Source: Escherichia coli
GTDB taxonomy: Bacteria > Pseudomonadota > Gammaproteobacteria > Enterobacterales > Enterobacteriaceae
NCBI RefSeq assembly: GCF_044324785.1
Contig: NZ_CP172127.1
DNA: 64,000 bases
Reading direction: 5' to 3' (one strand)
Part shown: one piece after another, positions 23,119-31,399 of the stretch
How the letters are laid out: every line of letters starts with the position of its first letter
How positions within the stretch are numbered: the stretch's first letter is position 1
Translations under genes and position numbers: made by a program
The notes under the pieces: generated by a model
Seen by the model: the letters and a program-made list of their open reading frames with translations, nothing else
The model's database searches: none
What the model was told of the DNA's origin: nothing

Positions 23119-24767
23119 TTGGGCCGATACTGAATCAGCACCAGACGCTCCTGACGATCGATGGCATCTGCGGGCGGAATGGCGAGACTGTTGATATCTT
23201 CATCGCGGTCAACCGAAAGCACGAGTGTAATAATCCCCTCCTGACGATGTTGATTAAGCCAGTTTGCGAACTCATCACCGCTGACAAATCTCCCTTTCGC
23301 ATCCGGATAATTAAGGCCGTATTTCAACTCACCTGTCTGACGATACATGATGATGTCATCGCGTTGCAGGCTCCATGCCAGACCTGCGGCAACGCCCACG
23401 CTGTCAGTAAGAATATAGCGGCTTGGCTGCAGTGATTCTTGTGTCATCTCGACAAAAAATTGCGGATGTTTTCCTTCCAGGACTCTGTCAGGAATTGAAA
23501 ATCCTACCAGCAACGTCAGCCCCAGCGGGCAAAGCGCGGCAAAAGACCAGGTCTTTTCGACGTTTGTTAAGGTGTACCAGCCGAAAAATGCCCATAGCGA
23601 AAAAATCGACCAGGCACAGAAGACTTTATAGCTCTCGAAGGTTTGCCACACCGGCGTGTTCATTGGTCCCCAGGGGGAGACCACAAACGTAGCAATAATG
23701 CCAGTGACGCCAAAAGCGATGTTAATCCAGCCATTAATCCGCAACGCCAGAGGATTATTTTTTGCTGCCAGCAAAGCGTAATGCGCCATCAGCATTGCCA
23801 GAGGTGCAAAGCAGGAAAGAATATAGGTGGGCAATTTGCCTTTGGCGACGGAGAAAAACAGCAGCGGCATTACCGCCCAGCTCAATAAATAGACGGTTGC
23901 GGAATGCTTGCGGTTTTTCCAGCCTGTGTACAGTGCTCCGGGGAGTAATCCCAGCCACGGCAGGCTACCGGCAATGATGACCGGCAAGTAGTACCAGAAC
24001 GGAGCTCTATGCTGAGCATCATCCATTGCAAAGCGTTGAATATGCTCAACCCAGAAAAAATAGTGCCAGAAGTCAGGCTCCCGCTGCGCTATCGCCAGTC
24101 CCCAGGGGAGAACCGTCAGTACGCAACTGATAACCGCCAGCCAGCCGTAAATAAAGAGATCTTTCCAGCGTTTTTGCGTCGCCACCCATGGAAGCACGCT
24201 TAATACCGGCACGGCAAGGGCGAGAAAACCTTTGGTCATCACCCCCATGCCGCAGGTGATTCCCAGCAGTAAAAATCCGGCGCTTTTGCCTTTCCACGTC
24301 TGTGCCTGCATTGCCAGCCAGAAGCTGCACATTCCCGCCACCAGCCAGAATGCAATAAACGGATCGAGCACGGCATAAGTGCCGATGGCATAGACAATAA
24401 ACAATGAGAGATAAATTACTGTGGCGAGTAGAGCCAGACGTTTATCGCGCCATAAGCGCAGAGTAAACCAGGTCACCAGCGCGGCAGTTAACAGGGTCGC
24501 AAAGATAACGCCTGCCCGCACACCAAAGTTATTCGCGCCAAATAGCCATTGCCCAATGCTGTTAATCCAGTATCCGGCAATGGGTTTTTCGAAATAACGT
24601 AGCCCTAACAGATGGGGCACAATCCAGTCGCCGGATGCCAGCATTTCTCGACTGATTTCCGCATAACGCGTTTCATCGGGTTGCCATAGCAGACGTGTGC
24701 TGATCGGTAACAGGTAATAGCAGGCAATAAACGCGAAGAGGCCGATAAGGTAACGTACCGATTTCAT
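23115..24767 (-). CDS. arnT: Lipid A 4-amino-4-deoxy-L-arabinose transferase ArnT, 550 aa
   Basis: ORF track; polytopic glycosyltransferase. Confidence 0.95.
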
Positions 24768-25657
24768 CAGCGACTACCCGCAATTTGTTGGCAACCCAGC
24801 CAGCCTTCACGTCCGGCAATATTTCCGCGAACAACTTGCCCGAGCGGCAACGTCCCTGATAACAGTTCGCTTAAAGGGCAAAATGTCACGCCTTCCTGGG
24901 CTGCGCGTTTCAGGAGATCCACAAAATTATGCTGATAAGCGCAGCCTTCAACTTCTGCATGAATGGTATAAACCGGCGTGCCTTTATCTCGCAGGATGCG
25001 GTTGAGTAACCAACCGTTAAAATCTTCTGCTTTCACATCCCGACCAATCACTTCATCCCAGGTGGGTAAGGTCACCGGAATTTGCGCAGTGCCAGGGTTT
25101 CCTGATTCGAGCAGTGGACGAAACGGCATGGCCCCACGACAATCGCTGTTGTAGCGCAAATGGAACGCTTCTTTTGCTTCGATCACCTGCTGGTCGGCAC
25201 GCCAGCCAGCGGCTGCGGAGCAGGTTACCGGTTGGCCGATAATTTCTTCCAGGGTGCGAAGGCCGCGTGCGATATCGTCGACCATTGTTTGCCGATCCCA
25301 GTTACTGCTATGGGCTTGCCAGGCATGGTGATCCCAGGCGTGCAGGCCGACTTCGTGGTGTTTAGCCGCTTCACGAATGATATCGGCATTGGCATGACCA
25401 ATCTCTTTACCTGGCCAGGCCGTACCTGCCAATAAAATATCCCAGCCATAAAGCGATGCTGCGTTTGAGCGCAGCATCTTCCACAAAAACTGTGGCTTCA
25501 CCAGTCGCCAGAGATGGCGGCCCATATTGTCCGGGCCGACGCTGAAAAAAATGCTGGCCTGAATATTATGCTTACTCAAGATTTCCAGCAGACGCGGCAC
25601 GCCTTCACGGGTGCCACGAAAGGTATCGACATCAATGCGTAAGCCTACTTTGGTCAT
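24767..25657 (-). CDS. arnD: Undecaprenyl-phosphate 4-deoxy-4-formamido-L-arabinose deformylase ArnD, 296 aa
   Basis: ORF track; polysaccharide deacetylase fold. Confidence 0.95.
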
Positions 25658-27635
25658 GATGGTTTATCCGTAAGCTCGACGGTGCGCAAGAAGAAATCCA
25701 GCGTTTCGTCGATGGTTTCCTGCATATCAATTTTCGGCTCCCAGTCCAGGCAGCGGCGGGCATTGCGGATGCTTGGTTTACGATGCTCTACGTCCTGATA
25801 TCCTTTGCCGTAGTAGCTGCTACTTTCGACAACGCGAAAGCCCGCAAACGGTGGGAAGTGATGGCGCAGCGGATGTTTTTCGAAACTCGCCAGCAGCATC
25901 TCGCCCAGTTCCTCAATGCTCGCTTCGTTCTCAGGATTGCCAATGTTGATAATTTCGCCGTCGCAGCGATTTCCCGCATTTTCGATAATGCGGTACAACG
26001 CCTCGATACCATCGCGAATATCAGTAAAGCAGCGTTTTTGTTTTCCGCCATCAATTAGCTTAATTGGTGAACCTTCTACCAGATTGAGAATGAGTTGCGT
26101 AATAGCGCGGGAGCTGCCGATTCGTGCTGCATTAAGGTTATCCAGTCGTGGTCCCATCCAGTTAAACGGCCGGAAGAGGGTGAACTGTAAACCCTCTTTT
26201 TCGCCATAGGCCCAGATCACCCGATCAAGTAATTGTTTTGACACCGAATAAATCCAGCGTGGTTTATTCACCGGGCCGACGATTAAATTAGAATGGTCCT
26301 CATCGAAGTATTTATCGCTACACATCCCATAAACTTCTGAAGTTGACGGGAAGATGATTCGCTTACGGTACTTCACGCAGTAGCGGATAATGCGCAGATT
26401 CTCTTCAAAATCGAGTTCAAATACGCGCAACGGGTTGCGGGTATATTCAATCGGCGTGGCTATCGCCACCAGCGGCAAGACGACATCACATTTTTTGACG
26501 TGATACTCAATCCATTCGGAATGAATACTGATATCGCCTTCGACAAAGTGAAAATGCGGATGATTCAGAAAACGGCTTATCGCATCGCTGCCAATATCCA
26601 GACCGTAAACTTCATAATGATCTTCGCGCAGCAGGCGTTCTGTCAGATGGTTGCCAATAAAGCCATTCACCCCGAGGATGAGTACCCGGGTACGGCGTCG
26701 GGCGGTGCAGGCAGGCTGGCTATTCAAGCGTGAACCTTGCACCAGGCCCAGCGTCTGCGCTAACTGCGAGCCCTGCATAGTAATGCCGTCGCCCGCCTGT
26801 CCGGTGACGATTTCCAGCGCGCCATCGCCACAGGCAATCAGCAGTGGTGCAACAGAAATCACGCTCCCCGGCTGTGCTTTGCTGGCATGAGGATGAACAC
26901 GCGACGACCAGACGGTGAATTTCTGATTGCCAACATAGCTGAAGGCACCCGGCCACGGATCGGCAACGGCACGCACCATGTTGTGCAGTACGGATGCCGG
27001 CTTATGCCATTCGAGGAAACTGTCTTCCGGTGTTCTGCGACCAAAACAGGTGGCTTCGTTTTCGCGCTGGGCGATTTCCAGAATATTACCGTGTTTAATG
27101 GCGGGTAATGTCTGCTCCAATAGCTGGCGCGCGGCATGGCACAATTTATGATGCAGCGTAATGGCGATATCGTCTGGCGCAATGGCAACGCGCAGTTGTG
27201 CCACAATGGCCCCGGCATCGGCACGTTTCACCATTCGGTGCAATGTAACGCCAGTTTCCGTTTCACCGTTCACCAGCACCCAGTTCAGCGGCGCGCGACC
27301 ACGATATTTTGGTAACAGCGAACCATGCAGATTAAATGCACCTCTCGGAGCGAGCTGCAAAATCTCATCGCAAATAAGATGGCGATAATAAAAAGAGAAA
27401 ATCACCTCTGGTGATAGTTGGGCAATGCGTTCCACCCACAGCGGATGATTAACGTTATCCGGCGCATAAACTGGAATGCCTCTTTCCGCTGCCAGTCGGG
27501 CAACCGAACCATAAAAGGCTTTTTCACCGGGGTTATCAGTATGGGTAAAAATGGCGCTAATTTCGTAACCGGCAGACAGCAGGGCTTCAATACCGAGGCA
27601 TCCCATATCGTGGTAGGCAAAAACGACGGTTTTCA

Positions 27636-27636
<1 letters not shown>
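25654..27636 (-). CDS. arnA: Bifunctional UDP-glucuronate decarboxylase / UDP-Ara4N formyltransferase ArnA, 660 aa
   Basis: ORF track; N-terminal formyltransferase and C-terminal SDR domains. Confidence 0.96.
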
Positions 27637-28607
<971 letters not shown>

Positions 28608-29765
28608 TTATTGTCCTGCGAGTTGCTGAAGGGCTGTGATGACGCGGTCGGCATCGGCGGTGGTCATATCCGGGAACAGCGGCAACGAACAGATGCGTTC
28701 GCTATTCCATTCGGTATTCGGTAACGACAGCGTGGGAAAACGCTCGCGATAATATTTTTGTGTGTGAGCGGCGCGGAAATGTAACCCGGTACCAATGCCT
28801 CTTTCTTTTAACGCTTCCATCAACGCATCGCGACTGATACCACAACGTTGTTCATCGACACGAATAATAAACAGATGCCAGGCGTGAACGTGCGGCCAGG
28901 CGGGAAGGCTTAATGGCTGAAAGGGGAGAGCTGCCAGTGCTTGCTGATATTGCTGGGCAATTTCGCGCCGACGGGTGTTGAGGTGCTCTAATTTGGCTAA
29001 CTGGGTCAGGGCAATCGCGGCGTTAATATCGGTCAGATTATACTTATAGCCCGGCGTTAAGACTTCAGCTTGCGGTGCACGGCCCCAGGTTTGTCTGTCA
29101 TAGGCATCGACACCCAGACCGTGAAATTTTAGCATCCGTAGCTGGCGGGCAAGGTTTTCATTATCAGTAACAATCAGGCCACCTTCCGCACAGGTAATAT
29201 TTTTGATGGCGTGAAACGAAAAAATAGCGGTACCTTTTGCGCCAATATGTCGGCCTTTGTAATACGTACCGACGGCATGGGCAGCATCTTCGATAACTGC
29301 GATGCCGTAACGTTCGCCAATGGCGCGAATGGCGTCAATATCTGCTGGCGCACCGGCATAATGCACCGGAATGATGGCTTTAGTGCGTGGCGTAATGGCT
29401 GACTCGATCGCTTCAGGCGTGACCATCAGCGTATCGCGGTCGACATCCACCATTACCGGCGTTGCACCCAACAAGGAGATCATATTGAGGGTTGAAACCC
29501 AGGTCAGGGAAGGCGTAATCACTTCATCGCCCTTGCCAATTTCCAACGCCATTAGCGTGATATGCATTCCGGCGGTGGCTGAACTGACCGCGATGGCATG
29601 CTGATTTCCCGTCAACTGGCAAAAGGCTTGTTCAAGCGCCTGATTCTTCGGACCGGTTGTGATCCAACCGGATTCGAGAACCTCTTTAACTGCAGCGAGT
29701 TCCTCCACGCCCATTGCTGGTCGCGAAAAAGGCAAAAATTCTGACATTGCTTTTCCTTCCGCCAT
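28608..29765 (-). CDS. arnB: UDP-4-amino-4-deoxy-L-arabinose aminotransferase ArnB, about 385 aa
   Basis: Track ORF 28608..29780; start set to ATG for [16 protein letters not shown]-dependent DegT family. Confidence 0.9.
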
Positions 29766-29845
29766 TGAATACCTGTCCACTTATATTTGCTATAAAGAGT
29801 GTTGTGTATATTTTGCCATTTGGAGCAAAATTTTAAGGATAGAAT

Positions 29846-29862
29846 ATTAACTTAACCTTAAG
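29846..29862 (-). promoter_or_regulatory. Candidate PmrA (BasR) box upstream of arnB
   Basis: Minus strand reads CTTAAG-gttaa-GTTAAT (direct repeat, 5-nt spacer) about 80-95 nt upstream of arnB start. Confidence 0.55.
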
Positions 29863-30054
29863 AAACTAATATTAGACGTAAATATTGAAATTTTTATATT
29901 TTTTCTTATTTAGGCTTTGCATTTGGCAAAATTTTGAGGCATTTTGCCGGCATCGCAGGATTTTTAATATTACACCAACTGCTAATTATCGCCAGAAATG
30001 TCGCTCAATTTCACGGTAATTGTCTGGTTGCGCTTGTCTATAGGTGGAGTTTAC

Positions 30055-30657
30055 GTGTTAGCTTTTTGCCGCTCTTCGTTGAAGTCAAAAAAATATTTCA
30101 TCATTTTACTGGCGCTCGCTGCAATTGCCGGACTGGGTACTCATGCCGCCTGGAGTAGTAATGGTTTGCCACGTATCGACAATAAAACACTGGCCAGACT
30201 GGCACAGCAGCACACGGTTGTCGTTTTGTTTCGCCATGCTGAACGTTGCGATCGTTCAACCAATCAATGCTTGTCAGATAAAACAGGTATTACGGTCAAA
30301 GGTACCCAGGATGCCCGTGAACTGGGCAACGCTTTTAGCGCTGATATCTCTGATTTCGATCTTTATTCCAGTAATACCGTCCGGACCATTCAGTCGGCGA
30401 CCTGGTTTTCAGCGGGTAAAAAGCTGACGGTAGATAAACGACTTCTTCAATGCGGTAATGAGATTTATAGTGCAATTAAGGACTTACAAAGCAAAGCACC
30501 TGATAAAAATATCGTTATTTTTACCCATAATCATTGCCTGACATATATTGCTAAAGATAAGCGTGATGCGACATTTAAACCTGATTATCTGGATGGTTTA
30601 GTCATGCATGTGGAAAAAGGCAAAGTTTATCTGGATGGGGAATTCGTTAACCACTAA
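30055..30657 (+). CDS. ais: Lipopolysaccharide core heptose(II)-phosphate phosphatase-like protein Ais, 200 aa, GTG start
   Basis: In-frame GTG for (M)[13 protein letters not shown] within track ORF 29998..30657; histidine-phosphatase RHAER motif. Confidence 0.8.
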
Positions 30658-31121: not shown

Positions 31122-31399
31122 GGGGATATTCCTTATAAATAAAAAGAAACCATGAGAATACGGTAACTCAGAAATATGTGAAAGTGACAGTAATCTCTTT
31201 TGCGATGATAACTGCACTTATTATTATTTTTGTGTGTATCGATAAAGTGTGTTTATTTTTTCGGCGTTTAATTATTTAAGAAGTATTTAGTTACAATAAG
31301 TGACTAGATCCCTTTTTTCGCTCATTGAATCCTCTGTGCCAGGCAGTACAATCCCGCAGCTTTGGGAATTTTGATTTATTGCTTGTGGGAGAGGGGAAA

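Follow-up and report, generated by a model that had tools for sequence, protein, structure and literature searches.

PmrA boxes were defined in the pbgP-pmrG system of Salmonella enterica. The experimentally verified boxes of this organism consist of CTTAAG as the first half and NTTAAT as the second, with 5 bp between them (PMC3973317). [quoted passage not shown] The latter work describes head-to-tail binding of PmrA and its overlap with the -35 element, and it presents a docking model for RNA polymerase that is derived from the PhoB-sigma4 complex.

In E. coli, pbgP (arnB), pmrC and pmrG (ais) are in use as PmrA-activated, Fe3+-induced reporters (PMC3140997). In 2023 an E. coli strain was reported to carry the PmrA consensus, “with a slight modification”, in the control region of its arn genes (PMC10729948). 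Because of these two reports, the interpretation of the site as a PmrA box is established knowledge, and the feature discussed here is the known, already described PmrA/BasR box of the arnB promoter. PmrA binding, head-to-tail recognition and PmrA-dependent induction are taken from the literature. What the present analysis shows is the sequence and how far it stands out statistically, its orthology to boxes that have been footprinted, the conserved distance between box and -10 hexamer, and the integrity of the genes; the precise starts of the arnB and ais transcripts and a use of the box by ais are inferred.

The window, i.e., the entire stretch of 64,000 nt of E. coli DNA that was analysed, contains arnB and ais in divergent orientation with an AT-rich control region in between (Table 1). 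The seven arn genes are co-directional, their reading frames have the same lengths as in K-12, and pseudogene flags are absent from the RefSeq annotation of the identical strain 7/2. The products match their NCBIfam models over the full length and above the respective curated cut-offs, as exemplified for ArnB in the table; the values are 670 bits against 529 for ArnC, 1260 against 777 for ArnA, 521 against 382 for ArnD, 814 against 567 for ArnT, 211 against 92 for ArnE and 139 against 99 for ArnF. The genes accordingly form the arnBCADTEF operon, also known as pmrHFIJKLM or pbgPE. Ais is a histidine-phosphatase protein (PF00300 is found in its homologues) and qualifies as the Ais/PmrG heptose(II)-phosphate phosphatase; PmrD qualifies as the connector protein of that name. 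The first-pass annotation had described the whole arnBCADTEF-pmrD locus as intact. By reading-frame lengths, RefSeq annotation and NCBIfam this is correct for arnBCADTEF, pmrD and ais alike, but pmrD is not part of the operon: it is convergent with arnF. A simple scan of the 240 nt upstream of pmrD for a PhoP box with 10 of 12 matching positions yielded none.

Table 1. Features of the arn-ais locus, in coordinates of the window
Feature	Coordinates	Strand	Remarks
arnC, arnA, arnD, arnT, arnE, arnF	22397..28604	-	Remainder of the operon, full length; NCBIfam equivalogs above cut-off
pmrD	22137..22403	+	88 aa; convergent with arnF, overlap of 7 nt; separate transcription unit; NF011994 173 bits (cut-off 96)
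arnB CDS	28608..29747	-	379 aa; RefSeq annotation of the identical strain 7/2; NF008658 742 bits (cut-off 631)
arnB, alternative in-frame ATG	29765	-	385 aa in the K-12 annotation
Divergent control region arnB/ais	29748..30054		AT-rich: G+C 33% versus 52% in the window
arnB -10 hexamer TAAAAT, putative	29830..29835	-	10 nt downstream of the box; start probably near 29823
PmrA/BasR box CTTAAG-GTTAA-GTTAAT	29846..29862	-	Half-site 1 29862..29857, half-site 2 29851..29846; plus strand ATTAACTTAACCTTAAG
ais core promoter TTGCAT-N17-CATTTT, putative	29917..29945	+	-35 29917..29922, -10 29940..29945; start guessed near 29952
ais (pmrG) CDS	30055..30657	+	GTG start, 200 aa; NF011945 390 bits (cut-off 142)

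The two in-frame ATGs of arnB are both kept in Escherichia, Citrobacter and Salmonella. The downstream one is preceded by AGGA, and alignments with other genera start at that methionine. As the K-12 arnB start is equivalent to the ATG at 29765, positions 29766-30054 are exactly what the K-12 gene models leave between arnB and ais. The region is common property of the species: a query of 421 nt around it found matches in 5404 of 5426 complete E. coli genomes, many of them 100% identical. A search of the control region against Rfam returned zero family matches.

The first-pass annotation had pointed to a direct hexamer repeat with a 5-nt spacer on the minus strand upstream of arnB. Its sequence proved to be as claimed. 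The repeat lies 81-97 nt upstream of the ATG at 29765, or 99-115 nt upstream of that at 29747. How much such a string means depends on the pattern that is used to find it. The loose consensus YTTAAK-N5-YTTAAK with one mismatch allowed is matched 4 times in the window, with 2.98 matches expected; being close to chance expectation, the loose consensus alone is no evidence. The strict pattern CTTAAG-N5-NTTAAT, which is that of the verified Salmonella boxes, is matched once in 64 kb versus 0.01 matches expected. The matrix scan proposed earlier was also run, with a position weight matrix drawn from 39 distinct orthologous boxes, none of them from Escherichia or Citrobacter. The arnB box came out on top with 22.15 bits; the runner-up in the 64 kb, both strands considered, reached 12.08 bits, and the best site among 20 shuffled windows 20.04 bits.

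A second PmrA-like string, the 17-mer TTTAAGAAGTATTTAGT with one mismatch, is seen upstream of yfaZ at 31275-31291 (+), where it directly adjoins the -10 hexamer TACAAT (31292-31297) of that gene. The yfaZ start mapped in K-12, with a leader of 97 nt (PMC3415461, Table S1), corresponds to position 31303 of the window. As a PmrA-activated promoter this candidate was dismissed: the gap to the -10 hexamer is zero instead of 10 nt, and the matrix score stays below 6 bits. For these reasons it is probably a chance match.

The arnB promoter itself has a putative -10 hexamer at the proper distance from the box; the position of the -35 element reads AGGTTA, which is no -35 match. Judged from its letters, the promoter is laid out like those of PhoB, with the box taking the place of the -35 element, and the transcript probably starts near 29823. 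This arrangement is conserved. We scanned one genome per species with ArnB, which resulted in 80 Enterobacterales loci, and inspected the 400 nt upstream of arnB in each. A sense-strand box followed after 9-11 nt by TAnnnT is present in 69 of the 80 loci; on the antisense strand the count is 0, and shuffled sequences gave a mean of 0.115 loci. Over the arnB loci, the anchored consensus reads CTTAAt-N5-(c)cTAAg, then about 10 nt, then TA..tT. At the equivalent position, four Klebsiella/Raoultella loci carry CTTAATATTATCCTAAG, the very sequence of the K. pneumoniae box1, and the Salmonella locus carries CTTAATGTTAATTTAAT, again 98 nt away from the arnB ATG as in E. coli.

The site thus shows the hexamer repeat, the 5-bp spacing, the sense-strand placement at -35 and the orthology to PmrA-bound, footprinted boxes that characterise a PmrA (BasR) box. 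Together with its match to the verified form, the -10 geometry in 69 of 80 loci and the E. coli work already cited (PMC10729948, PMC3140997), this upholds the earlier reading for arnB. We are highly confident that PmrA (BasR) has its operator for the arnBCADTEF promoter here, in a scheme in which the box likely also activates ais.

The mechanism would then run as follows. The sensor PmrB/BasS responds to Fe3+, Zn2+ or mild acid; depending on the background, low Mg2+ also feeds in via PhoP and PmrD. Phospho-PmrA would dimerise, and its two winged-helix DNA-binding domains are predicted to bind CTTAAG-N5-GTTAAT head-to-tail at this site. Sitting at the -35 place, 10 nt before TAAAAT, PmrA would, by analogy with PhoB, recruit sigma-70 RNA polymerase to an arnB promoter lacking a -35 element. 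The transcript encodes the enzymes by which lipid A receives 4-amino-4-deoxy-L-arabinose. From about 90-100 bp upstream of the ais start, the same box would most likely also activate the divergent ais promoter.

Some other signals in this region deserve mention. A PmrA-dependent start of arnB or ais does not appear in the E. coli start table of PLoS Genet 2012 (PMC3415461), the cultures of which we assume to have been uninduced for PmrA. The same table contains a start antisense to ais that is assigned to arnB with a leader of 691 nt; its promoter maps to 30487..30457 on the minus strand. This start (about 30456-30487, -) could reflect an antisense ais transcript or distal read-through into arnB. 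A generic sigma-70 scan proposed TAGACG-16-TATATT (+, 29873-29900) and GTGAAA-18-GATAAT (-, 30014-29985). Both were discarded as unconserved, and the former is removed by a deletion of 21 nt in Escherichia sp. E1V33.

The region also contains an imperfect direct repeat of 22 nt, CATTTGG(A)GCAAAATTTT[A/G]AGG, at 29810-29838 and 29919-29948. One copy lies over the arnB -10 hexamer, the other over the spacer of the putative ais promoter. Inverted repeats flank both copies: GGCAAAAT/ATTTTGCC (8 nt) is found around the second and ATTTTGC/GCAAAAT (7 nt) around the first. As an operator these internal repeats were rejected, their arms being unconserved in Escherichia sp. E1V33, the closest other Escherichia species compared.

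The ais side is less well charted. We aligned the intergenic DNA of E. coli with that of Escherichia sp. E1V33, E. albertii, C. amalonaticus and Citrobacter R56, and compared Salmonella and C. rodentium by eye. Only two conserved islands emerge: the box with the arnB -10 hexamer, and, on the ais strand, TTGCNT-N17-CATTTT. Both hexamers of the latter and their 17-nt spacer are invariant in 12 of 12 genomes. The island is best understood as a weak sigma-70 promoter of ais, which would start near 29952 and produce a leader of roughly 100 nt. This putative leader does not fold better than its shuffles (z +1.07), and Rfam has zero matches to it. On its minus strand, the island 29913-29948 carries TAAANT in relatives, and a second promoter in arnB direction was therefore considered. 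It was discarded: E. coli has CAAAAT, a conserved -35 or box upstream is absent, and genomes that lack arn retain the island. A promoter in arnB direction is less likely here than one for ais.

The first-pass annotation saw no convincing second box for ais, and the matrix agrees: in 29748-30054, both strands, nothing else exceeds 4 bits. TTAA being self-complementary and CTTAAG palindromic, the arnB box read on the ais strand as ATTAAC-TTAAC-CTTAAG still reaches 12.0 bits, which ranks third in the window. Its distance from the ais -35 hexamer among the 12 genomes is 54 nt in five, 44 nt in five, 33 nt in one and 41 nt in one, namely C. tructae. The DNA in between is poorly conserved. The lengths of 54, 44 and 33 nt imply that all but one genome differ by whole helical turns (about 10.5 bp); the gap of C. 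tructae is out of helical phase. In C. rodentium, a Citrobacter MAG and Intestinirhabdus alba, ais has no arn operon beside it, and the box is nevertheless kept at 44 nt.

These genomes have their own peculiarities. Where arnB is missing next to ais, the upstream neighbour is menE (C. rodentium, the Citrobacter MAG) or pmrD (I. alba). In C. tructae, where ais likewise has no arnB beside it, an ArnT-like gene follows directly behind the arnB-type promoter, with the box kept. C. rodentium retains ATGGCTGAAGGA, a 12-nt remnant of the 5' end of arnB, so its box may have survived because the deletion was recent, not because of selection.

The lack of a second box, the phase-conserved gaps and the retention of the box in genomes without arn together suggest that the single box also activates ais. 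We consider it an even bet that one box works both ways, as the site replacing the -35 for arnB and as a distal, helix-face-dependent activator site, some 80-100 bp upstream, for the weak ais promoter. Dual-direction use of a box may already have been described for Salmonella pmrG. The use by ais is an inference, since the ais start is a putative one, independent spacing changes are few, C. tructae is out of phase and the C. rodentium deletion is perhaps recent. An ais promoter of class-II type, starting directly off the box on the plus strand, was rejected: a conserved TAnnnT 9-11 nt after CTTAAG is absent in the seven species compared.

The opposite possibility is that ais has a PmrA site of its own. 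The candidate is a degenerate half-box within the promoter island, TTTGAG at 29932-29937 in E. coli, which reads TTTAAG at the same place in Escherichia sp. E1V33, E. albertii, Citrobacter R56 and Salmonella; in K. pneumoniae, PmrA does protect half-boxes, if more weakly (PMC2565834). Yet the TTAA core is lost in E. coli, C. amalonaticus and C. rodentium (TTTGAG, TTTAGG), the partner hexamer 11 nt away is absent in every species compared, and the matrix score is below 4 bits. The half-box, moreover, sits in the spacer of the putative promoter, which is a position for repression rather than activation, and what is kept in genomes without arn is the full box. We consider a separate ais site unlikely and prefer the shared box. 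The most trivial explanation, that TTAA-rich strings turn up by chance in AT-rich intergenic DNA and that the arnB repeat is one of them, without regulatory function, could appeal to the low G+C content of the region and to the near-random yield of the loose consensus. It is contradicted by the yield of the strict pattern, by the distance in bits from both the shuffled windows and the next real site, and by the preservation of position, strand and -10 distance in 69 of 80 species against a background of diverging flanks. Statistics and conservation combined leave this explanation practically no room.

A further rival model, put forward for an enteropathogenic strain of E. coli, is that QseB activates and PmrA blocks (PMC10729948). 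Accordingly, the box region would mainly be a QseB operator: phospho-QseB, cross-phosphorylated by PmrB, would activate arn, and PmrA would act as a brake by occluding RNA polymerase. The experimental basis is that phosphorylated QseB, a paralogue of PmrA, shifts a 60-bp probe which is identical to 29881..29822 of the window, and that a pmrA qseC double mutant shows constitutively raised expression of arnB and eptA along with a 16-fold increase in colistin MIC (PMC10729948). The double mutant, however, represents a situation of cross-talk and not the wild type. The probe holds the whole box, so the shift may simply reflect binding of a paralogue to a PmrA box; inspection of the probe by eye gave no convincing hit for the QseB consensus quoted. 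Binding of QseB to the same PmrA box is plausible as such. Its role as the main activator is harder to reconcile with the activator geometry, i.e., a box 10 nt before the -10 hexamer and no -35, which is kept in 69 of 80 species, and with PMC3140997 and PMC2565834, which build on the activation of pbgP by Fe3+ through PmrA in E. coli and Salmonella. Because of this order-wide geometry and the PmrA-dependent induction reported elsewhere, the QseB model is improbable as the wild-type mechanism, somewhat more so than an ais half-box. PmrA as activator of arnB remains our reading of the site.

Within E. coli, there is little variation to work with. The 60 bp around the box are found at an identity of at least 95% in 5412 of 5426 complete genomes. 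K-12, where arnB also goes by the names yfbE, pmrH and pbgP, has the identical box, -10 hexamer, ais promoter island and start codons; 5 single-base differences are scattered over 321 nt, none of them in these elements. The nearest one, at 29827, follows the -10 hexamer by three bases; on the minus strand the window has T there and K-12 has C. Over the 60 bp, the allele of the window is identically present in 1734 of 5414 complete genomes, or about a third; most complete genomes match K-12.

What does the site mean? It is the textbook control element of the inducible modification of lipid A with aminoarabinose, nearly invariant in essentially all E. coli genomes, and its practical value is one of annotation. 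Inducible polymyxin resistance of the strain also depends on basRS, eptA, ugd and phoPQ, which are located outside the window. The arn locus being intact and normally wired, chromosomal resistance to colistin or polymyxin can still arise via mutations in basRS/pmrAB or of the mgrB type. Mildly new is the argument, drawn from comparing genomes, that ais seems to depend on this same single box at a phase-conserved distance. If this shared use is true, one response-regulator site controls two divergent promoters.

Among the known systems, one parallel is the pho box of PhoB-dependent promoters, which is likewise a tandem direct repeat that stands in place of the -35 element and ends about 10 bp before the -10 hexamer. 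There, the activator contacts region 4 of sigma; this complex served as the docking template in PMC4660055, and the contact would apply to PmrA by analogy. Regulator and recognition sequence, of course, are different ones.

[quoted passage not shown] It differs in the second half-site, which is CCTAAG instead of GTTAAT in E. coli. Klebsiella further has an extra PhoP box and a second, PhoP-dependent promoter, which together constitute a feedforward connector loop, and it has no ais as a neighbour. In C. amalonaticus the arnB leader has gained some 210 extra nt between box and ATG, which puts the two 310 nt apart rather than about 100; part of this insert looks like an ERIC/IRU intergenic repeat.

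The system of Salmonella enterica is built alike. Its pbgP(pmrH) and pmrG are divergent like arnB and ais, and a single box on the arnB strand precedes the arnB ATG by 98 nt. The Salmonella box, CTTAAT-GTTAA-TTTAAT, differs from that of E. coli in 2 of 17 positions, each located at the edge of a half-site. The ais promoter island with its 17-nt spacer is there as well, and about 110 nt separate the ais -10 hexamer from the start codon. The gap between the box and the ais -35 hexamer is 44 nt in Salmonella versus 54 nt in E. coli.
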